Below, piece after piece: positions 16,125 to 31,368 of a stretch of 64,000 nt of DNA. The stretch's first letter is position 1. Each line of letters opens with the position of its first letter. The notes under the pieces are model-generated. The model was not told where the DNA came from. It searched no databases and saw only the letters and a program-made list of their open reading frames with translations. The DNA is from Clostridia bacterium (GTDB lineage: Bacteria > Bacillota > Clostridia > Christensenellales > Borkfalkiaceae). Where the stretch lies: NCBI GenBank assembly GCA_017467345.1, contig JAFTSI010000047.1, positions 2,360-66,359 on the forward strand. The letters are read 5' to 3'. The position numbers and the translations under genes are program-made.

Positions 16125-17870
16125 ATGGAACTAAAAAATTATCATATAGACGATATAAACGCCGTTTTAGGCTGTATGCGAAAAGACAAAAAGGCAAATG
16201 TTCACTTTATGCCAATTTATAAGCAATACTATGTTAGAAGTGAAGAGTGGAGTGGTTGGCAACTATTTGAAACTTGGAGCAAGGGCCGTTTGCCTTTAAA
16301 TAATAGCAAAGGCATTTGGTATACTAATATTTTGGTAAGTTATACCGATATAGATGGCAAGTTTAGGCAATTCAACTTTACCAACTTAAGACCCGACTAT
16401 CAAATATTTAAAAACGAAGCATACGACTATATATTTCCAAGGTTTAGTTTGCGTGCAGGTAAATATAAGTTTACTGTAACAAGCCAAATATACGAAGACT
16501 TAATGGAATATTTAAAAAAGCCAGTAAAGGAAGAGTTTACCGATACCCTTGAAGTAATAGTTCCAGAAGAAGGCCCCGTGCTTTTATATTTATGCGCAGG
16601 TGTTAGCGTAGAATACGATAAGTTTCAAGAGTTTGACACAATCTTTTGGAAGTGGGAAACAAAGCGCAAGGTGGTTAGCAAAAACTTTGAACATTGGTTT
16701 TTACAACTAACCCCCGAAGAAGCCGAAAAACTATATAAGTTTTGGCGAGTTAACACCGACAAGGTGGAAGTAATTCCAAAAGGCGAGCCGTGGGGCTTTG
16801 AAAAGGTGGCCACTAAACCCGCCGCCAAAACAACCACTAAAAAGAGTGGCAGTTCGGCAAAACCTGTAAAAAGCGATTATGACGAAAAGGTTAACGCCGT
16901 TAAAGGCAATTCTACTACAAGTAAACTTTTAATAAGCGATACCTATGGCGATAAAGGTGTGTTTCGTGGCGCGCAAGTTTTTGCAGAGCCTAATGGTAAT
17001 TACGAATACATAACCTTACGCGAATCGCAAACCCTTGGCATAGATAAAAAGATGAAAGCCGAAATATATACCGATGGCGATATATTCTTTTACCAAGAGA
17101 ATAAGTATGGCATAGTGGGTGGCGCGATAAGAACAAACAATAACGGTGGAATATATTATACCTATACTGATAGCAACGGCTTAAAACAGCGCTACACTAT
17201 AAGCATTAACCCAAACAACATAAATGTATACGAAATTAAAGATGGCTATTTAACAGGTAAAGCCTATTCTGTAACTGCAAATGATGTGTGTGAATCGCGC
17301 ACAAACGGTGCAAAAATTATGAGTGAAGATAGGCTAATATCAACCCCATTATACGCAAAGTTCCCATCTTGCAAAATTGATATACCAAGCGCATTAACGG
17401 GTAAAAGCCTTTACCTAACCCAAGACCCTAATAATTATAGTTACGCGCAGTTTTCTAATGGCGCAGTAAACGGTTATGGATTATATAGCACTAATATTTC
17501 ATATGCAGGCTCATTAAATAAAAACGGCCCACACGGAGTGGGCATTTGCCGAAACAGTAAAGGGGTTGCGTGTATGGGTGGCTTTAATAATAAGAAAATG
17601 CAAGGCTTAACATTTATGATTAATAATGATGTTGAGTATATTTGCAGTTATAATAACGGTAATGCCGAAGGAATGTTTTTAGAACTAAGAGATGATAGGG
17701 TAATATTTACTAAATACGATTACCCTGGAAAAGTTGCCGATAGAAGTATAGTGATATATAGTGGTAAAAAGGGATTTGGTTTTTATAATTCCATAGATAG
17801 ATACGGCGCATTAAACAATGTTCCAATGGTATATCACAAGGGCGGCGGAGTTACTACAAAACATAAATAA
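16125..17870 (+). CDS. Hypothetical 581-aa protein: conserved N-terminal domain, K/P/T-rich linker, C-terminal MORN-like G-rich repeats
   Basis: Long ORF with a GGGGG RBS and no signal peptide. The C-terminal NGYGLY...GPHGVGI...MQGLTF...AEGMFLE periodicity resembles MORN repeats. Paralog of the next ORF. Confidence 0.8.
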   Translation: MELKNYHIDDINAVLGCMRKDKKANVHFMPIYKQYYVRSEEWSGWQLFETWSKGRLPLNNSKGIWYTNILVSYTDIDGKFRQFNFTNLRPDYQIFKNEAYDYIFPRFSLRAGKYKFTVTSQIYEDLMEYLKKPVKEEFTDTLEVIVPEEGPVLLYLCAGVSVEYDKFQEFDTIFWKWETKRKVVSKNFEHWFLQLTPEEAEKLYKFWRVNTDKVEVIPKGEPWGFEKVATKPAAKTTTKKSGSSAKPVKSDYDEKVNAVKGNSTTSKLLISDTYGDKGVFRGAQVFAEPNGNYEYITLRESQTLGIDKKMKAEIYTDGDIFFYQENKYGIVGGAIRTNNNGGIYYTYTDSNGLKQRYTISINPNNINVYEIKDGYLTGKAYSVTANDVCESRTNGAKIMSEDRLISTPLYAKFPSCKIDIPSALTGKSLYLTQDPNNYSYAQFSNGAVNGYGLYSTNISYAGSLNKNGPHGVGICRNSKGVACMGGFNNKKMQGLTFMINNDVEYICSYNNGNAEGMFLELRDDRVIFTKYDYPGKVADRSIVIYSGKKGFGFYNSIDRYGALNNVPMVYHKGGGVTTKHK

Positions 17871-17892: not shown

Positions 17893-19638
17893 ATGTCAGT
17901 TGAAAGATATGTAGATAATGTAGAAGCCGTTTTAGGCTGTATGCGAAAAGATAAAAAGCCAAATGTATATTTTACGCCACTTAAAAAGATGTTTTATGTT
18001 CGTAGTCAAGAGTGGAGCGATATGGTGCTTTTTAACACATCATTGAAGGGAGTGTTGCCTAAAGTATACGGCACAGGCGCGTGGTATACTTCTATAAATG
18101 TATCGTATTACGATAAAAACGGCAAGTTTCAATTTTTTACCTTTTCAACCCTTAAAGGTAGAGATGAATATGATTTTTTGTTTCCAAAGTTTAGTTTGCG
18201 CGCAGGCGTATATAACTTCACCGTAAACTTCGTAGTTTATGAAGACTTAAATAGTAAAACTAACCCCGTTGATGAAACTGTTAGCGAAACGATAGAATTA
18301 ATAGTCCCTGAAGAAGGTGATGTGCCAGTAATATTAGTTTCTTCAATAGGCGCAAAATATAGCGAATATGAAAAGTGGGATGACATTTTAGATAAATGGG
18401 AAACAAAGCGCAGTTTAGTTGGCAATAGGTTCTATTATGCTTTGGTTCAGGCTGACCCTATAAAAGCAACTCAATTTTACAAATACTGGAACCACGATTG
18501 GTGCAGAATTGATGTAATACCTGATGGCGAACCTTGGGGATTTGATGAACCCACTACTTCGTGGTATAGTGAGCCTACGCCCACTTATAGCGCACCCAAG
18601 AAAAGCGCATCAAAACCAAAGCCTGCGCCTAAAAACGATTCAAAAGAAAAGCAAAACGCCATTACCTATTTTGATAGTGATGTAGATTTAGTTATTAGCG
18701 ACGATTACGGCAAAAAAGGGCTATTTGGTGGCGCGCGTATAAACGCAATTAAAGATAGCGACGGAGAGATTGTTAGGTTAGAAGAAACCCGAAATCCATC
18801 TACCGAAAGAAGTATGATAGCCGAAATTAAAGATGGAGGCAATTCCACAATCTTTTTTGAAAATAGTTCTGATAGAATTGGTGGCAAACTTGATACTAAT
18901 AACCGTGGTGGAATATTCTATAAATATACAGATAGTTATGGCTACTATCAGCGCTTTGCAATAAGCATTAACTCAACCCATATTTCCGTTTACCAAGTGG
19001 TTGATGGCTACCTAACAGGAAATGGATATAAAATAGATGATGATGTTAATGAACTTGCTTGCGATAAGTTTAAAGTGTTATCTTCAAGAAGATTAATTAG
19101 TTCGCCTGTGTCTGGTAGTTATTTTACACTTGACTTTTGGAATATACCAAAAGCAGTAACAGGTAAAACCATTAAAACCGATTTTAACGATAGTTATAAT
19201 GTTCACCGCGTTGCTCAATACTCAGGCAGTTCGCTAAACGGCTATGGCTTATATAACTGCTATAATAATGTGTATATAGGCTCTCAAGATAGTGAGGGTT
19301 TTAACGGTGTTGGCATTTATAAAGAAGCGAACGGTAAAGTGTATGGCGGTGGCTTTAGAAATGGCAAGCGCCACGGCTTAATATTTACCACCGAAAATGA
19401 TGTGGATTATATCTATAACTATAAAAATGGCGAACCTCAAGGCACTTTCATAGAAATATATAGCGATAGGGTTATAATAGGCAAAATTGATTATTATGGC
19501 AACATTGCCGATAAAAGCGTTGTAATATATAACGGCAGTAGGGGATTTGGTTTTTATAACTCAATTGATAGAAACGGTGCGCTAAATAATGCTCCAAGGG
19601 TTTACCATAACGGCGGCGGAATAGAAAGAAAGTTGTAA
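17893..19638 (+). CDS. Hypothetical 581-aa protein, tandem paralog of 16125..17870
   Basis: Same length and architecture. Shared blocks include VLGCMRKDKK, FSLRAG, KWETKR, GEPWGF and GFGFYNSIDR.GALNN. Confidence 0.8.
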   Translation: MSVERYVDNVEAVLGCMRKDKKPNVYFTPLKKMFYVRSQEWSDMVLFNTSLKGVLPKVYGTGAWYTSINVSYYDKNGKFQFFTFSTLKGRDEYDFLFPKFSLRAGVYNFTVNFVVYEDLNSKTNPVDETVSETIELIVPEEGDVPVILVSSIGAKYSEYEKWDDILDKWETKRSLVGNRFYYALVQADPIKATQFYKYWNHDWCRIDVIPDGEPWGFDEPTTSWYSEPTPTYSAPKKSASKPKPAPKNDSKEKQNAITYFDSDVDLVISDDYGKKGLFGGARINAIKDSDGEIVRLEETRNPSTERSMIAEIKDGGNSTIFFENSSDRIGGKLDTNNRGGIFYKYTDSYGYYQRFAISINSTHISVYQVVDGYLTGNGYKIDDDVNELACDKFKVLSSRRLISSPVSGSYFTLDFWNIPKAVTGKTIKTDFNDSYNVHRVAQYSGSSLNGYGLYNCYNNVYIGSQDSEGFNGVGIYKEANGKVYGGGFRNGKRHGLIFTTENDVDYIYNYKNGEPQGTFIEIYSDRVIIGKIDYYGNIADKSVVIYNGSRGFGFYNSIDRNGALNNAPRVYHNGGGIERKL

Positions 19639-20451: not shown

Positions 20452-20526
20452 TGGCAGGGGTAGCAGGATTTGAACCTACGAATAACGGAGTCAGAGGCCG
20501 TTGCCTTACCGCTTGGCGATACCCCT
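20452..20526 (-). tRNA. tRNA-Gln (anticodon CUG), CCA encoded
   Basis: The reverse complement reads AGGGGTATCGCCAAGCGGTAAGGCAACGGCCTCTGACTCCGTTATTCGTAGGTTCAAATCCTGCTACCCCTGCCA. It has a 7-bp acceptor stem, a Gln-type D-arm (GCCAAGCGGTAAGGC), anticodon loop CTCTGAC and a GGTTCAAATCC T-arm. Confidence 0.9.
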
Positions 20527-20569: not shown

Positions 20570-20690
20570 GTAATTTAACGGTGGATTTTTTTAATTTATA
20601 AAATGAACATATTAGCATATATAAATATGAACAAATGAAAATGTGAACATATAATCAAAAAAGGGTAAAAAAGAAAAGTGGGTCAAATGA

Positions 20691-20720
20691 TTGACAAAGC
20701 GGTAAATGTTATGGTATTAT
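20691..20720 (+). promoter_or_regulatory. Promoter of the T-box leader
   Basis: TTGACA (20691..20696), 18-nt spacer, TATTAT (20715..20720). Confidence 0.55.
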
Positions 20721-20743
20721 AGCGATAACTTAATAAAAAAACT

Positions 20744-21003
20744 ATGACGAAGAGTGGTTTGCTAAGTAGTTTCAAAGAGATACGGCGTTTGGTGAAAGTT
20801 CGTAAAACGGTAGGCAAAACCTGTAACTTCCGAGTTGGAAGAAGAAATCGCAAGAGAGTAGAACTTTCCCGTGTGTGCTACGAAAGTGCATAGGAATTGA
20901 TAGATTCCAAAAAGTGGCGTGGGAACGCAATTTGAGTGGTACCGCGGGTGTGATAATAAACAATGCTCCCGTCTCAAAGCAAGTGCTTTGAGGCGGGATT
21001 TTT
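20744..21003 (+). promoter_or_regulatory. T-box riboswitch leader (tRNA-sensing transcription attenuator)
   Basis: K-turn-like TGACGAAG...CTTCCGAG, AG bulge AAAGAGA and distal loop TTGGTGAAAG. The T-box sequence AATTTGAGTGGTACCGCGGG lies at 20929..20948. Terminator stem cccgtctcaaagc/gctttgaggcggg plus a T-run lies at 20968..21003. Confidence 0.85.
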
Positions 21004-21022
21004 CGTTAAAGGAGAAAAGGTA

Positions 21023-23317
21023 ATGAAAGGAAACAGCGAACTTGATTTAAAAATCAAGGAGATGGGCGCGAGAATTAAAGAACTTCGTGAAATTGAAGGC
21101 TTGACCACGGCGCAAATGGCATCAAAAACAGATGTTTCGGTAAGTGAATACGAAGCGTGCGAAAAGGGCGAAATGGATTTAAACTTTGCCTTTATTTATA
21201 GATGTGCAAATGCCCTTTCGGTCAATGTAACCGATATTATTGAAGGTTATAGCCCCACGCTTAAATCATACACTTTAACAAGGTTTGGTAAAGGTCAAAA
21301 AATCGCGCAAGCGCACGGTATGACATACTATAACCTTGCCTATGCTTTTAAAAACCGTATTGCAGAGCCACTTTATGTTCGCTCTACCTATTCTGCCGAA
21401 GCGCAAAATGAAGAGATTGAATGCACTACTCACGCAGGTCAAGAATGCGATATCGTTATTGATGGCTATTTAAAAGTTAAGGTGGGCGACCACGAAGAAG
21501 TGTTAGGCCCAGGCGATAGCATTTACTATGACAGTTCAACTCCACACGGTATGATAGCCGTAAATGGTAAAGACTGTATTTTCTATGCAATCGTATTAAA
21601 CCCCACGGGCGAACCTATTCCAGAGTTTGATGAGAACTTAAAGCCTGTTGAAAAAACCGAAAGCGCGCCTGTTAAAGACGATAAGGAAAGGATTTGGCAT
21701 AAATATATAGATGTAGAAGAAAACGAAAAGGGCACTCCCACCAAGATTGAGTTCAAAAACACCGAAAACTTTAACTTTGCTTTTGACCTTGTTGACGCAC
21801 TTGCCGATAGAGAGCCCGATAAACTTGCAATGCTACACATTTCTAAAGACTTAACGGAACGCCGTATAACCTTTATGGATGTTAAGCGCGAATCTTCAAG
21901 ATGCGCAAACTATTTTAAGTCGTTAGGCATAAAGAAGGGCGATAAGGTAATGCTTGTATTAAAGCGCCATTATCAATTCTGGTATGCTATGATAGGCTTA
22001 AACAAACTTGGCGCGATAGCAATACCTGCAACCAACCAACTCCAAGAACACGATTTTGAGTATAGGTTTAAGTCGGCAGAAGTATCGGCAGTAATTTGCA
22101 CGGCAGATGGCGACACGGCAGAGCAAATTGACCTTGCGTCTAAAACTTGCCCCAACCTTAAACATAAATTAATAGTAAACGGTAGCCGTGATGGTTGGCG
22201 TAATTTTGATGAAGAATGCGCAATGTTCCGTTCGGTATACCCAAGAACGGAAGACGCACCTTGTGGCGACGACCCACTTTTAATGTTCTTCACATCAGGA
22301 ACAAGTGGCTATCCAAAAATGGCACTACACAACCATAAATACCCACTTGGCCATTTCCATACTGCTAAATACTGGCACAATGTTGACACCGAAGGCTTGC
22401 ACTTTACCATAAGTGATACAGGCTGGGCAAAATCAATGTGGGGTAAATTATACGGGCAATGGCTATGCGAAGCGGCAACTTTTGTATTTGACTTTGATAG
22501 GTTTGACGCAAAAGAAATATTGCCTATGTTCGCAAAACATAAAATTACCACTTTCTGCGCTCCACCAACAATGCTCCGTATGCTTATAAAGCAAGATATT
22601 TCGCAATACGATTTTTCTTCTGTTAAGCATATGACAACGGCAGGCGAAGCCCTAAACCCAGAAGTATATTATCAATTTGAAAAACTTACAGGCTTAAAGA
22701 TTATGGAAGGCTTTGGCCAATCTGAAAGCACAATGATGATAGGTAACCTAACAGGCCAAAAGAACAAACTTGGCTCAATGGGTAAGCCTGCGCCTATCTA
22801 TGATATAGATCTAATTGATAGCGACGGCAAGTCAGTTGCCGTAGGTGAAGTAGGCGAAATAGTAGTAAATGTTGAAAAGGGCGCGCCGTGTGGTCTTTTT
22901 GGTGGCTACTATATGGATTTTGATAAAACTATGGAAGTTTGGCACGACGGGTATTACCACACAGGCGATACTGCTTGGCGTGACGAAGATGGCTATTACT
23001 GGTATGTTGGTAGAGTAGATGATGTTATAAAATCAAGTGGCTATCGTATAGGGCCGTTTGAAATTGAAAGCGTTATTATGGAACTACCATATGTATTAGA
23101 ATGCGGTGTTTCGGCAGAGCCCGACGAAGTGAGGGGTCAAGTAGTAAAAGCAAGCATAGTTTTAGTTGAAGGAACTGAAAAAACCGAAGAATTAAAGAAA
23201 GAAATTCAAAACTATGTAAAAGAAAAAACTGCACCCTATAAATACCCAAGAATAGTAGTTTTCCGTGATGAACTTCCCAAAACAACAAGTGGCAAAATCA
23301 TTAGGAATAAACTATAA
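21023..23317 (+). CDS. Fusion protein: XRE-family HTH + cupin domain (about 200 aa) + AMP-forming acyl-CoA synthetase/ligase
   Basis: The N-terminus has an HTH_3-like LREIEGLTTAQMASKTDVSVSEYEACEKG and a cupin H..G.E..V..G...V motif. The C-terminus has FFTSGTSGYPK, TGDTAWRDEDGYYWYVGRVDDVIKSSGYRIGPFEIES and PKTTSGKI (ANL superfamily). A GGAG RBS precedes the ATG at 21023. Confidence 0.85.
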   Translation: MKGNSELDLKIKEMGARIKELREIEGLTTAQMASKTDVSVSEYEACEKGEMDLNFAFIYRCANALSVNVTDIIEGYSPTLKSYTLTRFGKGQKIAQAHGMTYYNLAYAFKNRIAEPLYVRSTYSAEAQNEEIECTTHAGQECDIVIDGYLKVKVGDHEEVLGPGDSIYYDSSTPHGMIAVNGKDCIFYAIVLNPTGEPIPEFDENLKPVEKTESAPVKDDKERIWHKYIDVEENEKGTPTKIEFKNTENFNFAFDLVDALADREPDKLAMLHISKDLTERRITFMDVKRESSRCANYFKSLGIKKGDKVMLVLKRHYQFWYAMIGLNKLGAIAIPATNQLQEHDFEYRFKSAEVSAVICTADGDTAEQIDLASKTCPNLKHKLIVNGSRDGWRNFDEECAMFRSVYPRTEDAPCGDDPLLMFFTSGTSGYPKMALHNHKYPLGHFHTAKYWHNVDTEGLHFTISDTGWAKSMWGKLYGQWLCEAATFVFDFDRFDAKEILPMFAKHKITTFCAPPTMLRMLIKQDISQYDFSSVKHMTTAGEALNPEVYYQFEKLTGLKIMEGFGQSESTMMIGNLTGQKNKLGSMGKPAPIYDIDLIDSDGKSVAVGEVGEIVVNVEKGAPCGLFGGYYMDFDKTMEVWHDGYYHTGDTAWRDEDGYYWYVGRVDDVIKSSGYRIGPFEIESVIMELPYVLECGVSAEPDEVRGQVVKASIVLVEGTEKTEELKKEIQNYVKEKTAPYKYPRIVVFRDELPKTTSGKIIRNKL

Positions 23318-23704: not shown

Positions 23705-26700
23705 ATGAACACGAAATTTTCGCTTAATAACAAAACGAGAAATGTTTTGATTATTATTTTATCGTTTCTAATGGTATTATCGGCAAGTATCGGCGCGCTT
23801 TCACTTGTAAACAAGGCAAAAGCCGCTTCATATGACTTCGTTATGGTAAGCGATTCAATGGACACGAAGTATCAAGCCCACTGGCGTATAGGTCAAAACC
23901 AAACTGTAAGTGGTGAAACTTATGGTCTTTGGTCGTTTGGTGTTGGCGATATTGCTGCGGGTGGTAGTTATAGTTACACCCAAGCAACTTTTGATAATTC
24001 GGCTGGGAACTACGGCTATACCACAGGCACTGCTCACTCATTCTACTGGGGCGAAAGTGTAAACACCCGCCTTTATAGCAGTTCAAAAACCCAAAGTATG
24101 TTTAGATACTATGCAAATGCTGCGGGCTCTGTAGTATTCTCTGGCTTGATTTCAAAAGCAACCACCGATAAGCAAGACCTTGGTGGGACTCAAAACGGCT
24201 ACGATAAATTATGGATTGCAGGCCCTAACTGGGGTAACGGCGATTATAACTGGGTAAGTGGTCAAGCATACTCTATCGGTATGTATAAGGTAGATGGTCA
24301 AACTGGCGCAGTTACTGCAATTAACGAAAAATCGTATAGTAGCGAATTCGTTTACCTTGTTCCAAAAGACCCTATCACCGTAAAAGCAGGTGATGAAATA
24401 TACTTCACCTATAAGTGCACGGCAACTTCAGATGAATATAAAACTACTGCTATTGCGCTTTTCACCAGTCAATTCACTCTTGACCCAAGTAGCGGAGAAA
24501 CGGGTGGTTCTACAACCACCACTGGTGGCGACTATGTGTTCTTCAACCAAGCAGGAACTGATGGCCTTAACGATAAGTATATAAGCCACTGGAAAGCAGG
24601 TCAAAGCCAACACATTTCTGGCGAAACCAACGGAACTTGGCAATTTGGTAGTGGTGATGTTTCTACCAGCAAGGCATTGAGTTTTACTGCTGCAAGCGTA
24701 GGCACGGCAGATGCTGATGGAAACCGTGTATATACAAGTGGCTCTAACCACAACTTATATTATCAATCTTGCGCATACAACGCGCTTTACTCAACTGCAA
24801 GCACGCAAACAATGTATGTTTTAACTGCTGAACAAAAAGCGACCTTTGTTTTCTCTGGCTTAATTTCAAAAGCAACAAGCAACAAAGAGCAACTTGCAGG
24901 AACTCAAAACAACTATAACCCTGTATGGATTGCAGGTGTTAACCATACCGATGCTGCTTATAACTGGGCAAACGGTCACTCATACACCGTTGGTATGTAT
25001 AAGGTAGCATCAACAGGAACTGTAACCAAAATTCACGAAAACACCTTTACAAGCGAATATGCTTGGCTTGTTCCACAAACCGAACATGTATTAAACGCAG
25101 GCGATAAGATGGTGTTCACCATTAAATGTAACGCCGCTGCAGATGTAAACGCTACTGGAACATTAGTTCTTTTAAGTAGCAAAGCAGTAGAATATGTAGA
25201 AAACCCTGATGTAGTTGTTCCTGATGAACCAGAAGACACCCGTCCTGAAACTTTAGACGACATTATAACTACAAGTGGCTTTACTAAAATTGCTCACTAC
25301 AAGTTCGCAAACAACGGCACGGTAGCAACCGATAGCCTTGGCAACTACAACTTAACCAACAGTGGTATCGCAGTAGATTCAACTCTTGGTGGCGCAAAAC
25401 TTTCGGGAACATCTTTCATGTATGCTCCTGCAATCGCGCAAGACGGCTCTGATTTTAGTGATGCTGTAAAGGGAAGTTTCTCTGTAAGTTTCAAAGCACG
25501 CGCTATTCTTTCTAACGACGAAACTGGTCATCATATGTTATTCGGCACAGGCCTTAACGCAGATGGAGATGAATGTTTTGGTGTTTCTTGGCAAGGTAAC
25601 GACTTAGTAGTTATTGCAAGTGGCCAAGAATATAGGATAGACAATGCAAAAATTGAAAACGATATGGGTGAAACCGAAACCCTTAAAATGCTTGATGAAA
25701 CGGCATCTTGGTATCGCTATACCATTATCTATAACGAAAACAATAACGGTGCAATTACCTTAACTATTCGCGTTGATAGATTTACCGACGCAGGTATGTA
25801 TGGCACAATGACTGTTATTACCCAAAAAACCTTAAAAAATAAAATATCGTTTGGTGGTAGTTTAGAATACGGCTTTGCGATCGGCGCATCAACAACCCTT
25901 GGTGCATATCAAGAAAACTTTGCAAGTGGCTATGATTTTGAAGGCAACGCATTCTCTCCAAACATTGCAGATTTGCGCATTTATTCAGGTGTAATTGATG
26001 ATGCTGAAATACTACAAATTTGGAAAGATGATGAAGGTGCTAACTGGTTTGACCGTTCTGCAACCTATTCAATGACCATTGAAAACGACGCTAACGGTGG
26101 TATCATTACCGGTGTAAAGAACAATGTTAACTACGGTGTAAACACCAGCCTTAACATTAGTGTTCAAGCAAACACAGGTTACACTATTGCAAGCATTACT
26201 TGGAACGGAACAATGGTTCCTGTAACCAACACTTCTACAATGACCTTTACCAAACAAGTAAAGCAAGATACCACTCTTAGAGTAACCTATAACCGTATTA
26301 AACACCAAGTAACCGTTAAAGAAAACGGAGTTGTTAATAACGAATTAAGTGGCGAATACGGATATATGTCTAAGTTCAGTATCGCAGTTGATGCCGTTCA
26401 AGGTAGCAAAATTACAGGTTGCTATGTAAATGGCGAAGAAATCACACTTGAAGATAGCAGAAGTTTTGCATATGAATTCTATATTCAAGAAGATACTGTT
26501 GTTGAACTCACCTTTGAAAAGATTAAGTATAACCTTAACTTCAAAATCGCTAAAACCACTATTGAAGATGCTGATGAAAACGGCGAAATCGGTAAGATTT
26601 CAAACAGTCAATACAAAAACGATAGAGATAACTTCCCACAAGTTAAATGTGAACTTGGCGAAGAAATGACTATTGAACTTGTTGCTCCAGAAGGAAACGA

Positions 26701-26983
26701 AATAAGGGCAATTACTTGGGGTAAAGAAGTTATTGACTTAACTGAAGATAGTGATGGCGTTGAAATTACTAAAACGGGCGAATTTGTAACTGCTGTAAAA
26801 CTTACCAAAGTTATTGAAGGCAACACTGACCTTAAAATCCACTTCAACCAAGTTGCAGGTGGTGGCGCAGAAGAAGTTGAAATGGCAGGTTGCGAATCTG
26901 GTATTCTTACTATGGAATTAGGTTTAGCAATGTGCTTTATGGCAGGCGCACTTTTAGTTATTAAAAAGGCTAAAAAGAACTAA
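23705..26983 (+). CDS. Large cell-surface protein (1092 aa): signal peptide, 2x novel about 220-aa domain, LamG/concanavalin-like domain, InlB-B-repeat-like modules, C-terminal TM anchor
   Basis: N-terminal hydrophobic signal ending in ...KAKAAS. An internal duplication carries HW[RK].GQ.Q..SGE..G.W.FG.GD and FSGLISKA. The ADLRIYSGVIDDAEI pattern is LamG-like. The C-terminus LGLAMCFMAGALLVIKKAKKN is a TM helix plus basic tail, with no LPXTG. Confidence 0.75.
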   Translation: MNTKFSLNNKTRNVLIIILSFLMVLSASIGALSLVNKAKAASYDFVMVSDSMDTKYQAHWRIGQNQTVSGETYGLWSFGVGDIAAGGSYSYTQATFDNSAGNYGYTTGTAHSFYWGESVNTRLYSSSKTQSMFRYYANAAGSVVFSGLISKATTDKQDLGGTQNGYDKLWIAGPNWGNGDYNWVSGQAYSIGMYKVDGQTGAVTAINEKSYSSEFVYLVPKDPITVKAGDEIYFTYKCTATSDEYKTTAIALFTSQFTLDPSSGETGGSTTTTGGDYVFFNQAGTDGLNDKYISHWKAGQSQHISGETNGTWQFGSGDVSTSKALSFTAASVGTADADGNRVYTSGSNHNLYYQSCAYNALYSTASTQTMYVLTAEQKATFVFSGLISKATSNKEQLAGTQNNYNPVWIAGVNHTDAAYNWANGHSYTVGMYKVASTGTVTKIHENTFTSEYAWLVPQTEHVLNAGDKMVFTIKCNAAADVNATGTLVLLSSKAVEYVENPDVVVPDEPEDTRPETLDDIITTSGFTKIAHYKFANNGTVATDSLGNYNLTNSGIAVDSTLGGAKLSGTSFMYAPAIAQDGSDFSDAVKGSFSVSFKARAILSNDETGHHMLFGTGLNADGDECFGVSWQGNDLVVIASGQEYRIDNAKIENDMGETETLKMLDETASWYRYTIIYNENNNGAITLTIRVDRFTDAGMYGTMTVITQKTLKNKISFGGSLEYGFAIGASTTLGAYQENFASGYDFEGNAFSPNIADLRIYSGVIDDAEILQIWKDDEGANWFDRSATYSMTIENDANGGIITGVKNNVNYGVNTSLNISVQANTGYTIASITWNGTMVPVTNTSTMTFTKQVKQDTTLRVTYNRIKHQVTVKENGVVNNELSGEYGYMSKFSIAVDAVQGSKITGCYVNGEEITLEDSRSFAYEFYIQEDTVVELTFEKIKYNLNFKIAKTTIEDADENGEIGKISNSQYKNDRDNFPQVKCELGEEMTIELVAPEGNEIRAITWGKEVIDLTEDSDGVEITKTGEFVTAVKLTKVIEGNTDLKIHFNQVAGGGAEEVEMAGCESGILTMELGLAMCFMAGALLVIKKAKKN

Positions 26984-27396: not shown

Positions 27397-30300
27397 ATGA
27401 GCTTCAAGGCAAAAAGAACAAGTTTAATAGTTCTTATCGTTCTTTTAGTTGTATCGCTTTTTGGCGCAGTTTGTTTTGGCTTAACTGGCAAAACCAACAC
27501 TGCTGATGCGTATGTAAAAACGATAAGATATGGTTCTAACGGTGTTTATGACTATAACATAAACCATTGGAAAAATGGTCAAGGTCAACGCGTTTCTGGT
27601 CAACCTGAAAATGGTGGAACTTGGTGGTTTGGTTATGGCGACATAAATACAACATCATCAAGTTGGACGCAAACTGCAACTTTCAATAGTGGCAATATCG
27701 GTTTTTATGACCCTGCATCTGGTGGAAGTGGTGCCCAACACGCGCATAATTATTTTTGGGGTTTTAATGCGGCAACCCGTTCATATGCAAGTGCAAGCAC
27801 ACAAACTATGTTTAAGTATCTTGCAGAGGCAGATGGTTTTGTTAAACTTTCTGGCATAATAAGTAAGCATGTGTATAATGGCGTTCATCAATTTGGTTTA
27901 AATAATGAAGGAACGGATGCGGTATGGCTTAACTTTGACTGGGGTGCTCAGGCATCATCTTGGACTTGGAACGATGGCGCAAGTTTTACTATAGGTATTT
28001 GGCGTGTAACTTCTGCTGGTAAAGTTGCTTGTGTTGATGAACAAACCTTTACTTCTGCTTTCCGTTATGATGTTAACCCAAACGGTAATTCTATTGCAGT
28101 AGAAACAGGCGATATTTTATATGTTACAATTAAGTGTAATAATCCTGGAACTGGTAAAGGCGATTGGGATAACACCTGCTTAACACTTTTATCTTCAGAG
28201 TTTACTGAATATACTGCACCTTCTACTGCTTATGCAGATACCGCAGTTGCTGGTTCTACATACTATTCGCATATGACTGGACAAAAGGTTCGTAACGAAG
28301 GCGAAACCAGTGGTTACTGGCGTTATGGCTACGGTGATGCTACAAATGGTGGAACTTACACCTTTACTGAAATGACTTATGGTGCAAGTGGAACTGATAC
28401 ATATAGATATACAAGTTCTACTTCTCATAATATCTTTTGGGCATATCAAGTTAAAACGGGTTTGTATTCTACTTCAAATACTCAAACTTTTTATGAGTGG
28501 ACTGCAGAAGCAGATGGCGCAGTATCATTTACTGGTCTTGTAAAGAAAGCAGATAGTAACACTCGCGTTTTAACTTCTTATCAAAACAACACTGCTAAGA
28601 TAAGCACTTCAGTTCAATTTGACCAAAATCAATTTGGTTGGACAAATGGTGATTCATATACATTAACTATGTATCAAGTTACCAAGGCAGGTGCTGTAAG
28701 TGTTCTATTTGAACAAACCTTTACTAAAGAGTTTGCACTTTTAATCCCAACCGTTTCTATTCATGTTGCAACAGGCGATAGAATAGTATTCGGTTATAAA
28801 TGTAATGCTTTAGTAGGCACCGATACAAGCGCAGTTATCGCTATTAAGGCAAAGGTTACCGACGCAGCTCCCGCACTCGCACAAACCTACTTAAATAAAA
28901 TGGTATTGCAAGCAAATGCAAACACCAAGATTAACGGATTTGGTATTGCAGACAAAACTGTTGAAGTAACTGTTAAAGATTCATCTTCAAATACAATTCA
29001 AACCAAAACTGGTGTTGTTGCAAGCAGTGGCGATTGGACTGTAACCCTTGACCCAATGGCATCTTCTTTTGATAGCAAAACTGTTGAAATTAAGTATACA
29101 GATGGAACTATTGTTAAAACATTAACTGATGTTAGAACTGGTCAAGTATGGCTTTGCTCTGGTCAATCTAATATGGCATACACCTTGGCTGCTCTTATTA
29201 CCGATAGAAAAACTGGCGCAGACCCTTGGCATATGACTAATGATGAAGTTAAGGCAGCAGGTCTTGGCGAATATATTGATAACTACTCAACTGATGTTTA
29301 TAGCAAAGTTCGTTTATATCAAGTAGGTTATAACTCTAAACCTAACGGCGTTGATAAAACTGGAACGCCATATCAATACACTTCAACTCAATGGGCAGAA
29401 AGTGAAACCTTACAACAATGGATGGGCTACTCTGCATACGCTTTAGGCTTTGCATTTAGATTGCAACAAGCATCTGGCGAACCTGTTGGTGTTATTGTTT
29501 CGGCAGTAGGTGGCTCTTCTATTGAAGAATGGTTGTCATCTTCTACCATTACTAACGAAGGCTTATCTGGTGAAATCTATCATAGCCAAACTTCTAAACC
29601 ACAATCACACTTATATAATGGTATGATGTATCCTATTAGAAACTCTACCGTATCTGGTTTGGTTTGGTATCAAGGTTGTGCTGATAGAGGTTGGAATGAT
29701 GATGATACTGCAACGGCAGCACAAGGTAGCGTAAAGGTATGGACCACAAGTTATAGCAAAAAGATGGTTGCTTTTGCTAAACAAGTTCGTAGCGAATTTG
29801 GTGAAAACTTACCTATAATCGTTCAACAATTAGCACAAGATAAAGCATCTTCTAATATTAAGAGAATGTGGCAAACTCAATGGGATTTACAAAATAAAGT
29901 ATCTAACCTTTATGTTTCTACTGGTGTAGGTGCAGGTCTTCCATATTCATATGCTTTAGGTGGCGACCCAACTGATTATGCTAACACTATTCACCCAATG
30001 GATAAATATGGCATTTCTAAAAACGCTGCTAACATTGCAATGAGATATGTTTATGGCGATTTAACTTCTCCAGGTGTTGCTGCATATCCATCAGCAATTT
30101 ATAAATCTGGTAGCAATGTAATTATTGACTACGGCGCAAGCGAAAGTGATGCAGGTTATAAGTTAGTTCTTAAAAATTATTCTACTGTAACTAACCTTGA
30201 AGCATATAACGGCTCTGCTTGGGTTAAAGTTTCTGGCGCTACTATTGATGGAACAAGGGTTATTATTCCTAACGGCTCTTCTTACACCAAAGTAAGATAT

Positions 30301-31368
30301 GCTTGTTACAATGTAATGTGCTATGGCTCTACTAACGCAACAAGTGGTGGCCCAATGTATGATGGTGGCAACACTACATACACCAAAAACAACAGCGAAG
30401 ACCAAATTAGTCTTTACACCGAAAACGGTGTTCCTGCTGCTCCATTTAACGAAATTGCAATAGGTAGTGGTAGTTCTGGTGTTAATATGACTTTGGGTGA
30501 AGACTTATCTTTCTCTTATAAGTTCATTCTTAAAACTGGCTATACTAACCCTGTAGTTCACTATTCGTTCAATGGTAGAAATGTTGAAACTACTGCAACT
30601 CAAAATAGTGATGGTAGTTACACTGCAAGATTTACTGGTATTGCTCCTCAAGACCTTAACGATACATTAACCGTAAGCAAGGTCGTTGCAAAAGATGCTT
30701 TGGGTAACAGTGTTAATTTAAGGCTCTACTGGGCTAAAGAATCTTATGTTCCAATGAATTACCTTACCGAATTAAAGGCAAGCGATAGTTCAGTAAAAAC
30801 TCAAAAGATTGTTGTTAACTTGCTCAACTACGGCGCAGCAGCACAAACATATTTAGGTCACGATACAACAAACCTTGCAAATGCAGGCTTGTCAAGTGCA
30901 GACCAAACTAATTACGCTATCGCATATGATGCTAATGCAGTATCTGCAAGCGCAGTTCGTTCGCTTACTGGAACGGCAGTAAATAGTGTTAAGTTTGATA
31001 GCGCAAGAATTTACTACTCAAATAAACTTGGCTTTGGTATAATCTTTAAGGTTGCTAACGGCACAAGTGGAGCAGTTGCTCTTAATGTTACAAACGGTAG
31101 TGTAAATGTTGATATTACTGACTTTGTTCAATCTTGGGACGACGGTGCTTACACTTACTATGTAGCAATTTACGAAGGTGTTAATCCAAATGCCCTTGCC
31201 ACGGAGTTTAACTTTACCGTTAAAATTGATGGTGTGGCAGTAGGTCAAGTGCTTAACTACAATGTATACGCAAATATGGCAATGCTTGCAGGTGCAAACG
31301 ATAACAACGCTAAATTGCTCAAAGCGCTTTACTCTTATAGTGAAGCAGTAAAAGCATATAATGCTTAA
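27397..31368 (+). CDS. Large secreted protein (1323 aa): 2x novel about 220-aa domain + SGNH/SASA-type carbohydrate (sialate-like) O-acetylesterase domain + C-terminal beta-sandwich modules
   Basis: Signal peptide present. The domain pair is homologous to 23705..26983. The motifs GQVWLCSGQSNM, GLVWYQGCAD and NTIHPMDK are characteristic of the SASA/DUF303 9-O-acetylesterase family. Confidence 0.8.
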   Translation: MSFKAKRTSLIVLIVLLVVSLFGAVCFGLTGKTNTADAYVKTIRYGSNGVYDYNINHWKNGQGQRVSGQPENGGTWWFGYGDINTTSSSWTQTATFNSGNIGFYDPASGGSGAQHAHNYFWGFNAATRSYASASTQTMFKYLAEADGFVKLSGIISKHVYNGVHQFGLNNEGTDAVWLNFDWGAQASSWTWNDGASFTIGIWRVTSAGKVACVDEQTFTSAFRYDVNPNGNSIAVETGDILYVTIKCNNPGTGKGDWDNTCLTLLSSEFTEYTAPSTAYADTAVAGSTYYSHMTGQKVRNEGETSGYWRYGYGDATNGGTYTFTEMTYGASGTDTYRYTSSTSHNIFWAYQVKTGLYSTSNTQTFYEWTAEADGAVSFTGLVKKADSNTRVLTSYQNNTAKISTSVQFDQNQFGWTNGDSYTLTMYQVTKAGAVSVLFEQTFTKEFALLIPTVSIHVATGDRIVFGYKCNALVGTDTSAVIAIKAKVTDAAPALAQTYLNKMVLQANANTKINGFGIADKTVEVTVKDSSSNTIQTKTGVVASSGDWTVTLDPMASSFDSKTVEIKYTDGTIVKTLTDVRTGQVWLCSGQSNMAYTLAALITDRKTGADPWHMTNDEVKAAGLGEYIDNYSTDVYSKVRLYQVGYNSKPNGVDKTGTPYQYTSTQWAESETLQQWMGYSAYALGFAFRLQQASGEPVGVIVSAVGGSSIEEWLSSSTITNEGLSGEIYHSQTSKPQSHLYNGMMYPIRNSTVSGLVWYQGCADRGWNDDDTATAAQGSVKVWTTSYSKKMVAFAKQVRSEFGENLPIIVQQLAQDKASSNIKRMWQTQWDLQNKVSNLYVSTGVGAGLPYSYALGGDPTDYANTIHPMDKYGISKNAANIAMRYVYGDLTSPGVAAYPSAIYKSGSNVIIDYGASESDAGYKLVLKNYSTVTNLEAYNGSAWVKVSGATIDGTRVIIPNGSSYTKVRYACYNVMCYGSTNATSGGPMYDGGNTTYTKNNSEDQISLYTENGVPAAPFNEIAIGSGSSGVNMTLGEDLSFSYKFILKTGYTNPVVHYSFNGRNVETTATQNSDGSYTARFTGIAPQDLNDTLTVSKVVAKDALGNSVNLRLYWAKESYVPMNYLTELKASDSSVKTQKIVVNLLNYGAAAQTYLGHDTTNLANAGLSSADQTNYAIAYDANAVSASAVRSLTGTAVNSVKFDSARIYYSNKLGFGIIFKVANGTSGAVALNVTNGSVNVDITDFVQSWDDGAYTYYVAIYEGVNPNALATEFNFTVKIDGVAVGQVLNYNVYANMAMLAGANDNNAKLLKALYSYSEAVKAYNA

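Follow-up and report, generated by a model that had tools for sequence, protein, structure and literature searches.

The ligase gene and its T-box leader

Analysis of a 64-kb stretch of DNA (the window) revealed a T-box leader on the forward strand, followed by a single gene encoding a 764-amino-acid (aa) fusion protein. The following leader features were assigned.

20691..20720, plus strand: sigma-70-type promoter, TTGACA, 18 nt, TG-extended TATTAT (11/12 matches)
20735..21003, plus strand: complete transcriptional T-box leader (full RF00230 model, nhmmer with a leader profile, covariation tests)
20741..20837, plus strand: Stem I with base helix, K-turn, specifier-framing helix, AG bulge and distal loop (sequence and covariation)
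20744-20747 and 20831-20834, plus strand: Stem I K-turn, AUGA/CGAG
20749-20752 and 20827-20830, plus strand: specifier-framing helix, GAAG paired with CUUC (sequence)
20776-20780, plus strand: AG bulge AGAGA (sequence)
20791-20798, plus strand: distal loop GGUGAAAG (sequence)
20823..20826, plus strand: specifier codon GUA (Val) and conserved 3' purine A (RF00230 alignment, leader comparison)
20838..20928, plus strand: Stem II, IIA/B region and Stem III (compensatory changes in all helices)
20929..20947, plus strand: T-box sequence AAUUUGAGUGGUACCGCGG, with UGGU (20937-20940) proposed to pair with the tRNA 3' ACCA
20931..20978, plus strand: antiterminator, 20931-20936/20973-20978 and 20944-20948/20968-20972, with the 7-nt bulge UGGUACC
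20967..21003, plus strand: intrinsic terminator, 14-bp stem (20967-20998), 4-nt loop and U run to 21003
21010..21014, plus strand: ribosome-binding site AGGAG, 8 nt 5' of the ATG (sequence)

The covariance model RF00230 matched positions 20735-20979 over its whole length (model positions 1-219) with 71.7 bits (E=1.2e-15). This is below the Rfam gathering score of 93, a curated annotation threshold and not a biological feature, and the leader was absent from the default whole-window Rfam scan. A profile built from homologous leaders matched the window leader in nhmmer with E=2e-47. When the leaders of 18 relatives were scored with RF00230, 8 passed the gathering threshold, at 95-102 bits; as a class, the ligase leaders score at or below this threshold. 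Of 88 homologous leaders, 63 carry the promoter word TTGACAA at the equivalent position.

Comparison of 53 homologous leaders revealed 96% pairing in the fold and compensatory changes at 31 of its 43 pairs; none of 500 shuffles reached the observed values, and slid controls gave only 35-49%. The specifier-framing helix is paired in 100% of these leaders and shows both-side changes at three of its four pairs. The Stem I helices are 93-100% paired with compensatory changes, the antiterminator is 97-99% paired, and the terminator is likewise kept with compensatory changes. Folding of the window leader by itself was less uniform in strength. The minimum free energy fold of its Stem I pairs GAAG with CUUC, with a folding energy no better than that of shuffled sequence; the 20838..20928 region gave z=-2.2. 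The antiterminator is exactly the centroid fold of positions 20929-20980 (about -9.5 kcal/mol), and the terminator (-29.4 kcal/mol; z=-4.3; 0 of 200 shuffles folded as well) is far stronger. The two structures are mutually exclusive, as in T-box leaders. Positions 20735-21003 are a canonical class-I transcriptional T-box leader; tRNA-dependent antitermination itself is inferred, without in vitro or reporter data.

Specifier and tRNA specificity

The RF00230 alignment sets the consensus specifier "uuc" and its following "a" on GUA and A of the window. Over 91 homologous leaders, the specifier was GUA in 55, GUC in 5 and AUC in 29-30, with 2 pattern-matching miscalls. A valine specifier (GUA/GUC) with a purine 3' of the codon is thus present in 60 of the 91. 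The base 5' of GUA/GUC varies among orthologs (U, C or A), whereas GUA/GUC and the purine are kept, which rules out the alternative register UGU (Cys). As a positive control, Leu T-boxes on adjoining LeuA-like genes carry CUC or CUG at the specifier position.

The UGGU bulge is invariant among ortholog leaders, and GUGGUACCGCG is identical in 65 of 76 of them. The tRNA-Val of a relative (L071 508-583) ends in ...GCGTCC-A-CCA and has the discriminator A73; the tRNA-Val of the window's own genome was not included. The comparative analysis shows that the window T-box is specific for tRNA-Val, and its response to uncharged tRNA is inferred.

An earlier note, made from the sequence alone, had described this leader, and its account held. 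The GAAG/CUUC helix, K-turn, AG bulge, distal loop, GUA-A, T-box sequence and terminator all lie where it had placed them; only the start of the terminator, given there as 20968..21003, is set here at 20967. Its valine specifier was confirmed and its alternative cysteine register failed. Its inference that UGGU predicts A73 and fits tRNA-Val agrees with the invariant bulge and with A73 in the relative's tRNA-Val.

The fusion gene is intact

The downstream gene and its domains are as follows.

21023..23317, plus strand: 764-aa fusion joining an HTH-like domain and a cupin to a short branched-chain acyl-CoA synthetase of the MacS/MbcS type (Val-type paralog)
21065..21253, plus strand: XRE-type HTH-like domain, aa 15-77 (Pfam HTH_19, 34.3 bits, cutoff 30.2)
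21410..21592, plus strand: cupin barrel, aa 130-190 (Pfam Cupin_2; H137, E141 and H175 invariant)
21803..23296, plus strand: ANL ligase, AMP-binding at aa 261-630 (208.3 bits) and AMP-binding_C at aa 680-758 (76 bits)
22373-22375, 22427-22429 and 22715-22717, plus strand: codons of pocket residues W451, A469 and G565, with A540 as a further pocket residue (alignment)

Both AMP-binding domains score above their Pfam cutoffs. The gene presently carries the labels "AMP-binding protein" or "cupin domain-containing protein." A sequencing frameshift joining two separate genes had been named beforehand as a finding that would refute the fusion. This was rejected: over 120 relatives have the full length of 760-765 aa, and independent metagenome contigs span the domain junction without gaps (X2, 20984-22014; X3, 21084-21672). 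The claimed 764-aa fusion is therefore intact. The locus was found in DNA metagenomes only and in no RNA runs, so that transcript evidence is lacking.

The ligase domain resembles branched-chain acyl-CoA synthetases

Searching the Protein Data Bank revealed MacsMa (3ETC) as the best match (616 bits, against 353 for the next), with aa 246-761 aligned to residues 51-570; any Acs structure reached at most 277 bits. The best NCBIfam match was MbcS (NF047394) with 432.9 bits, short of the equivalog cutoff of 850, and the second best was the acetate-CoA ligase PRK04319 (375 bits). The enzyme is inferred from homology to work like MbcS but is not classed as an MbcS ortholog.

Alignment to Escherichia coli Acs revealed the replacements V310 to A469, T311 to K470, V386 to A540 and W414 to G565. 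Glycine at the position of Acs Trp414 is invariant in 110 copies. Trp414 restricts Acs to acetate, and glycine there opens the pocket (criterion AcsSe W414; PMC10455477). The preferred substrate of MacsMa is 2-methylbutyrate (PMC10455477). Position 469 separates the paralogs completely (100%/100%), with Ala in Val-type and Gly in Ile-type proteins; it is the sole fully discriminating ligase residue, and MacsMa also has Gly there. Position 310 of Acs, equivalent to A469, is one that we take to line the acyl pocket (Gulick 2003; Ingram-Smith 2006). Judged by alignment, Ala469 in place of the Gly of MacsMa and the Ile-type proteins would fit a substrate one carbon smaller. A preference for branched C4/C5 acids, with isobutyrate as the most likely substrate, is inferred from homology, 3ETC similarity, the A469/G469 split and gene context, without kinetics.

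The N-terminal HTH-like/cupin module

The HTH segment is acidic (net charge -5, pI 4.6; family median -7), and the net charge of its recognition-helix region is -4. The domain is modeled with five helices (pLDDT 87-95), and the cupin with pLDDT 81-92. Top fold matches of the module were the enzymes HppE, HEPD, MPnS and Psf4 and the XRE-cupin regulator 1Y9Q, at the level of architecture only (TM about 0.3, 14-20% identity). The alpha-domains of HppE, HEPD, MPnS and Psf4 are not known to bind DNA. The cupin has an H-x3-E ... H spacing like that of a 2-His-1-carboxylate site. Of 20 residues separating Val-type from Ile-type proteins, 17 fall within this module, among them HTH positions 46, 59 and 60.

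A k-mer search upstream of 88 leaders revealed no shared operator-like word except the promoter TTGACAA(A), and three ATGAACA words of the window (20600-20654) are not conserved. No close stand-alone homolog of the module was found; 542 short matches were nearly all fusion fragments on short contigs. The earlier note had proposed that the DNA-binding domain adds a second regulatory layer. This is doubtful, because the HTH is acidic, no conserved operator was found, and HppE and HEPD, both of them enzymes, are among the nearest folds. We infer that a metal- or ligand-binding sensor or partner domain is more likely than a DNA-binding repressor.

Gene neighborhoods of relatives and of the window

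Of 80 related loci, 40 have a P-loop gene immediately downstream of the ligase gene. From there, 35 of these 40 extend to the alpha gene of 2-ketoisovalerate:ferredoxin oxidoreductase (VOR) and 23 to IlvE, with all genes on one strand. The VOR alpha of relatives scores 542.7 bits for VorB (NCBI cutoff, 399), and IlvE scores 479 (cutoff, 307) and 399.6 (cutoff, 250). A 71-aa open reading frame with two 4Fe-4S motifs in relatives fits the VOR delta subunit. At about 30 loci, ligase paralogs with an Ile T-box and a Val T-box stand in tandem, and the copies with an AUC specifier all fall into one clade (SH-aLRT 96).

The 64-kb window lacks VOR and IlvE, as well as a P-loop gene and a second ligase; the ligase unit stands alone among capsule and carbohydrate genes. 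We infer that VOR and IlvE are encoded elsewhere in the genome. Leader and gene move as one self-contained regulatory unit, apparently transferred from Clostridia to Spirochaetota.

A tRNA-Val-gated isobutyrate ligase as the proposed function

The favored reading, to which we give a probability of about 0.74, is that a Val T-box gates an isobutyrate-type ligase for valine salvage. Accumulating uncharged tRNA-Val would pair through its anticodon with the GUA specifier in Stem I and through its free ACCA end with UGGU in the T-box bulge. This would stabilize the weak antiterminator over the much stronger terminator and let RNA polymerase enter the single downstream gene. The ligase would activate isobutyrate to isobutyryl-CoA, VOR would reductively carboxylate isobutyryl-CoA to 2-ketoisovalerate, and IlvE would transaminate the latter to valine. 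The unit would represent the entry step, switched on by demand, of a route that salvages valine from an abundant fermentation acid of the gut. The T-box anatomy, the Val specificity by comparison, the intact fusion and the VOR/IlvE linkage in relatives are shown; substrate and direction of flux are inferred from homology and context, without an assay.

The isobutyrate-to-valine route had been a speculative suggestion of the earlier note. It now has strong comparative support from the neighborhoods of relatives, the Ile/Val paralog pairs and the pocket residues, with the substrate still inferred. The 2-ketoisovalerate:ferredoxin oxidoreductase that the note had proposed to look for is present at the loci of relatives and absent from the 64-kb window. 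One statement of the note is corrected, namely, that the target is unlike the usual T-box genes. T-boxes gate aminoacyl-tRNA synthetases, de novo biosynthesis genes and transporters. Under the salvage reading, the ligase gene is an amino acid biosynthesis gene, so that the T-box acts in its usual role, only on a target of a new kind.

A bolder reading is possible, in which isoacid assimilation is under two inputs: the T-box reports demand, and the N-terminal module gates the ligase posttranslationally. The HTH-like/cupin module might then be a paralog-specific small-molecule or metal sensor rather than a DNA-binding repressor, with feedback by Val versus Ile, by the acid or by its CoA ester as conceivable signals. 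If true, this arrangement, taken with the Leu T-box of the LeuA-like gene, would amount to a tRNA-gated regulon that has escaped annotation and that would be the genetic basis of the branched-chain volatile fatty acid requirement of gut and rumen anaerobes.

Alternative explanations

Isobutyryl-CoA might instead prime iso-even membrane fatty acids, with the Val T-box as a proxy for primer shortage. In Staphylococcus aureus, MbcS helps to make branched-chain fatty acids from isobutyrate and 2-methylbutyrate (PMC10026030, PMC11167679); MbcS is the best NCBIfam match of the ligase, and the window gene stands without VOR or IlvE. We consider this unlikely. The ligase of relatives is colinear with VOR and IlvE and not with fab genes, the Val and Ile T-boxes sit on different paralogs and follow amino acid demand, and the Leu T-box on the LeuA-like gene completes the branched-chain amino acid set. 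The MbcS equivalog cutoff is also widely missed (432.9 against 850). A generic acetate/propionate-CoA ligase unconnected to valine, with a T-box that merely signals starvation in general, is less likely still. It could draw on PRK04319 as the second-best NCBIfam match and on one source that names a fragment "acetyl-CoA synthetase," but the Gly565 that stands in place of Trp414 widens the pocket (PMC10455477), and the similarity of the enzyme to MacsMa (616 bits) far exceeds that to any Acs (277 bits at most). The strict Val/Ile specifiers and the VOR/IlvE linkage would be left unexplained.

The protein could also be a trigger enzyme of the BirA-like kind, in which the HTH-cupin binds DNA and transcription is set by substrate, acyl-AMP or product. 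The HTH_19 score above its cutoff (34.3 against 30.2), the architecture shared with XRE-cupin regulators such as 1Y9Q and the concentration of paralog-separating residues (17 of 20) in the N-terminal module speak for it. The acidic HTH with its negative recognition-helix region, the lack of a shared operator-like word upstream of 88 leaders beyond the promoter, the enzymes HppE, HEPD, MPnS and Psf4 as top folds and the failure to find a close stand-alone module homolog among short matches that are fragments speak against it and make it improbable. Valine salvage through a tRNA-Val-gated ligase remains the preferred reading.

Comparison with known systems

The N-terminal module resembles XRE-cupin proteins (1Y9Q; PuuR-type) and the HppE/HEPD enzymes in its alpha-domain and cupin barrel. 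Unlike these, it is part of a ligase fusion and is acidic, and neither a DNA target nor a ligand has been identified for it. The ligase aligns end to end with MacsMa (3ETC), the medium-chain acyl-CoA synthetase of Methanosarcina acetivorans, and shares with it Gly at the Acs Trp414 position and the conserved "AKYW" tryptophan. MacsMa lacks the HTH-cupin module and is not known to be under T-box control. The closest NCBIfam family is that of S. aureus MbcS (NF047394), which converts isobutyrate and 2-methylbutyrate to CoA esters (PMC10026030, PMC11167679). In contrast to the window enzyme, MbcS feeds fatty acid primers and has no N-terminal module, and T-box control of it has not been reported.

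The leader resembles Firmicutes T-boxes (RF00230; Bacillus subtilis tyrS, glyQS; valS, ileS and ilv-leu leaders) in its Stem I parts, Stem II, IIA/B and Stem III, its 14-nt T-box with UGGN, its mutually exclusive antiterminator and terminator and its Val codon followed by a purine. It differs from them in its target, a fusion with an AMP-forming acyl-CoA ligase. This target class is not mentioned in the T-box surveys of Wels 2008 (PMC2494555) and Sun 2013 (PMC3766115) or in TBDB (PMC7778990). A T-box on an acyl-CoA ligase or VOR gene was not described in the literature searched; a mention in Vitreschak 2008 (PMC2271356) or Gutierrez-Preciado 2009 (PMC2650889) is not excluded. An acyl-CoA ligase that starts salvage from fermentation acids, in Val-tuned and Ile-tuned copies, would constitute a new T-box target class. 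If this is true, the substrate could be assigned by a sequence rule combining the specifier codon with pocket residue 469. Metabolic models of gut and rumen communities could then include isoacid cross-feeding and branched-chain amino acid supply, and genome annotation would improve for the ligase gene and for its leader, which is often below the Rfam threshold.

Rumen and gut anaerobes reportedly form branched-chain amino acids by reductive carboxylation of branched-chain volatile fatty acids via VOR (Allison, Bryant and Robinson, 1960s-80s). This pathway accounts for the dependence of many rumen and hindgut bacteria on isobutyrate and 2-methylbutyrate. It is known from labeling and growth requirements, and no activating enzyme or regulation was found assigned to it. 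The gene set of the relatives (ligase, VorDABC-type oxidoreductase and IlvE) corresponds to its three steps, from acid to acyl-CoA, to 2-keto acid and to amino acid. If the salvage reading is true, the long-missing activating enzymes of this pathway are named. Unlike in the classical description, each acid-specific ligase here would be gated by its matching tRNA.

T-box leader upstream of the ligase fusion

Analysis of the region 20735-21003 revealed a T-box leader in front of a 764-aa ORF. All T-box parts that the earlier note had listed for this region were upheld by reading of the sequence, and a strong promoter lies immediately 5' of the leader.

Features of the leader and its flanks
20691-20720, promoter, TTGACA and a TG-extended TATTAT separated by 18 nt
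20749-20752 and 20827-20830, framing helix GAAG/CUUC
20776-20780, AGAGA (AG bulge)
20791-20798, distal loop GGUGAAAG
20823-20825 and 20826, GUA followed by A
20929-20947, T-box sequence AAUUUGAGUGGUACCGCGG, with UGGU at 20937-20940
20967-20998, terminator with a 14-bp stem, U run up to 21003
8 nt 5' of the ATG at 21023, ribosome-binding site AGGAG

A default Rfam scan of the whole window did not report the T-box model RF00230. A permissive scan of the leader matched the full model with 71.7 bits (E=1.2e-15), which falls under the gathering score of 93. This full-length, sub-threshold match aligned the consensus specifier to GUA and the conserved following purine to A20826, upholding the specifier proposed earlier. 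At the gathering score, 8 of 18 ligase T-boxes in ten relatives were found (95 to 102 bits versus 93), and that of the window was missed. The ligase T-box class sits at the annotation threshold and is probably under-reported by pipeline annotation.

The terminator (-29.4 kcal/mol, z=-4.3) is far stronger than the canonical antiterminator (about -9.5 kcal/mol), in which UGGUACC is bulged; this is the imbalance expected for a switch that needs tRNA for read-through. The folding energy of Stem I alone was no better than that of shuffled sequence, and support for Stem I therefore rests on comparison.

Two further elements were observed upstream. A tRNA-Gln(CUG) gene (20452-20526, minus strand), on the strand opposite to the T-box, immediately precedes the region of the T-box promoter. 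The word (A)TGAACA(T)AT is present three times as a direct repeat (20600-20654) ahead of the promoter and is not conserved in orthologous loci.

Conservation and specifier of the leader

A scan taking one genome per species yielded 80 loci from gut and rumen Clostridia (Acutalibacteraceae, Christensenellaceae, Oscillospiraceae, and Lachnospiraceae), Sphaerochaetaceae, and other Spirochaetota. The core GUGGUACCGCG was identical in 65 of 76 upstream regions. An nhmmer profile placed the leader before every copy of the two fusion paralogs, the Val-type (specifier GUA or GUC) and the Ile-type (AUC). When the canonical T-box architecture was imposed on an alignment of 53 leaders, 96% of the cells were paired and 31 of 43 pairs had changed on both sides. 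None of 500 shuffles matched the observed pairing and covariation values, and sliding the partners reduced the paired fraction to 35 to 49%. Terminator and antiterminator were both kept across the 53 leaders.

In 91 full-length leaders, the codon beside the framing helix was GUA (55), GUC (5), or AUC (29); the remaining two were regex miscalls, one of them AUC. The framing helix co-varies (GAAG/CUUC, GGAG/CUCC, and AAAG/CUUU), and the tRNA-Val 3' end of a relative, A-CCA, is compatible with UGGU. Five loci carry an extra Leu T-box (CUC or CUG) before a short LeuA-like gene, which serves as a positive control for the specifier reading.

Leu-specifier T-boxes in five related loci (Rfam, 117 to 129 bits)
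L009 12740-12973
L020 12644-12875
L022 12727-12963
L062 1358-1577, minus strand
L069 2576-2808, minus strand

The LeuA-like gene (about 426 aa, HMGL-like and LeuA_dimer domains) adjoins the Ile/Val ligase cluster. The comparative analysis shows that the leader is a genuine T-box with specificity for Val; its response to tRNA is inferred.

Alternative readings of the locus

The earlier note had preferred a valine specifier and left UGU (Cys) as an alternative register. The Cys register is not conserved, since the base 5' of the specifier G varies (U, C, or A); the Val specifier held in the leader comparison. The same note had described the downstream gene as a single fusion, with a sequencing frameshift between two separate genes as the alternative. 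Pfam recognized HTH_19, Cupin_2, AMP-binding, and AMP-binding_C domains in the ORF (21023-23317, 764 aa). This four-domain architecture recurs in more than 120 relatives of full length (760 to 765 aa, about 80% identity), and independent gut metagenome contigs span the cupin/ligase junction with substitutions and zero gaps. These results indicate that the fusion is real, and the frameshift alternative failed. In three DNA metagenome runs that hold the locus (X1-X3), contig depth spikes at 20926-21017, with many apparent joints beginning at 20948-20951. These arise because the T-box core is common to leaders of other organisms in the same metagenomes, and they do not reflect a rearrangement.

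Gene neighborhoods and paralogs

In 40 of the 80 loci, the next gene after the ligase, in the same orientation, encodes a CbiA/MinD-like P-loop protein of about 221 aa. Oxidoreductase genes are reached before the contig end in 35 of these loci and an aminotransferase gene in 23. The partner genes encode a 71-aa protein with two 4Fe-4S motifs, an alpha subunit matching the NCBI model for VorB of 3-methyl-2-oxobutanoate (2-ketoisovalerate) dehydrogenase (542.7 bits versus a cutoff of 399), beta and gamma oxidoreductase subunits, and a branched-chain aminotransferase (IlvE) that clears two equivalog cutoffs. The P-loop protein (L071 8323-8988, L003 8292-8954, and 38 other loci) carries a GHYGSGKTN motif, is always encoded between the ligase and the delta subunit of 2-ketoisovalerate:ferredoxin oxidoreductase (VOR), and had zero NCBIfam matches; it might be an Fe-S or maturation factor.

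A tblastn search of the 64-kb window turned up neither VOR nor IlvE, and neither the P-loop gene nor another ligase. The nearby VOR that the earlier note proposed to look for is absent from the window and lies near the ligase in some relatives. The neighbors in the window are a capsule/exopolysaccharide cluster, an NSS transporter, large proteins of unknown kind, and carbohydrate genes. The ligase with its promoter and T-box is thus a self-contained unit of one gene, an arrangement shared by 39 of the 80 loci. Flanks of the full 6 kb are available for at least a dozen of these 39, which indicates that the solitary arrangement is genuine.

Other ORFs near the ligase
16125-17870 and 17893-19638, tandem, each exactly 581 aa, zero Pfam matches, probably paralogs
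23705-26983, downstream, 1092 aa, zero Pfam/NCBIfam matches
27397-31368, downstream, 1323 aa, SASA carbohydrate-esterase domain only

In about 30 loci, the fusion occurs as a tandem pair of paralogs, and both members have a separate promoter and T-box. The specifier is AUC in every upstream member and GUA or GUC in the downstream one. Maximum-likelihood phylogeny united all AUC copies in one clade (SH-aLRT 96), and the window protein clusters with Christensenellaceae GUA copies. A third, very divergent paralog of about 820 aa without a T-box lies upstream of the Ile/Val pair (L016 579-3044, L017 581-3046, L058 519-2975, L040 1218-3692, L048 1240-3717). Its ligase part spans aa 279-817, its best NCBIfam match is the fatty-acid CoA ligase family PRK12583, and it adjoins a LeuA-like gene in two loci; it is a candidate ligase for isovalerate or another acid. 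One relative has a cobalamin riboswitch (L027 215-437; RF00174, 78.3 bits) ahead of its ligase cluster.

T-boxes are uncommon in the spirochete phylum. The Val T-box with the fusion ligase was also found in Sphaerochaetaceae/Spirochaetales MAGs (L024-L026, L042-L043, L046-L047, L052, L067), and the spirochete proteins nest within the Clostridia Val group, suggesting that riboswitch and gene moved jointly into that phylum. Some spirochete copies lack a T-box (L023, L032, L050, L059, L065).

Acyl pocket and proposed function

The nearest solved structure to the ligase is MacsMa from Methanosarcina acetivorans (Protein Data Bank entry: 3ETC), which aligned end to end with 616 bits versus 353 for the next entry. 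MacsMa prefers 2-methylbutyrate, and medium-chain enzymes have Gly in place of the Trp that restricts Acs to acetate (PMC10455477). The top NCBIfam family was MbcS, with a score under its cutoff. Alignment with Escherichia coli Acs revealed the pocket correspondences V310 to A469, T311 to K470, V386 to A540, and W414 to G565. Only three ligase residues discriminate Val-type from Ile-type copies, all inside pocket segments: residue 469, which is Ala in the Val-type and Gly in the Ile-type (100% of copies in both cases), and the differences M472L and M571L. At position 469, MacsMa shares the Gly of the Ile-type, unlike the Ala of the window protein. The bulk of one extra methyl in the Val-type would fit isobutyrate, versus 2-methylbutyrate for the Ile-type; this is inferred without an assay.

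We consider it likely (probability about 0.74) that the unit is a demand-gated first step of isobutyrate-to-valine salvage. Demand sensed through uncharged tRNA-Val would open the T-box, and the ligase would perform the first step. The earlier note had guessed this pathway, and it is supported by the VOR/IlvE neighborhoods in relatives, the Ile/Val paralogs, and the pocket residues; the substrate, the flux direction, and VOR and IlvE elsewhere in the genome are inferred.

N-terminal module and comparison with known systems

Of 20 paralog-discriminating residues, 17 fall in the N-terminal HTH-cupin module, which indicates paralog-specific selection on it. The HTH segment is acidic (net -5 and pI 4.6 in the window protein, family median -7), with a net negative recognition region, and an operator search upstream of 88 leaders revealed nothing in common beyond the promoter word. 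The HTH domain noted earlier is present, and the DNA-binding second regulatory layer proposed for it is unsupported. From sequence and model, we lean toward a sensor or partner role over a repressor role, and the choice remains undecided. The AlphaFold model is confident for HTH and cupin and poor for the linker between them. It matches HppE, HEPD, MPnS, Psf4, and the putative regulator 1Y9Q at the architecture level only. Cupin residues H137, E141, and H175 are invariant, and their spacing resembles a 2-His-1-carboxylate site; HppE, HEPD, MPnS, and Psf4 are Fe(II) enzymes that share the two-module build.

An acyl-CoA ligase target class was not mentioned in the full-text literature, T-box surveys, and databases searched, which left some older reviews uncovered. 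Within this literature, the acyl-CoA ligase fusion is likely a new kind of T-box target.
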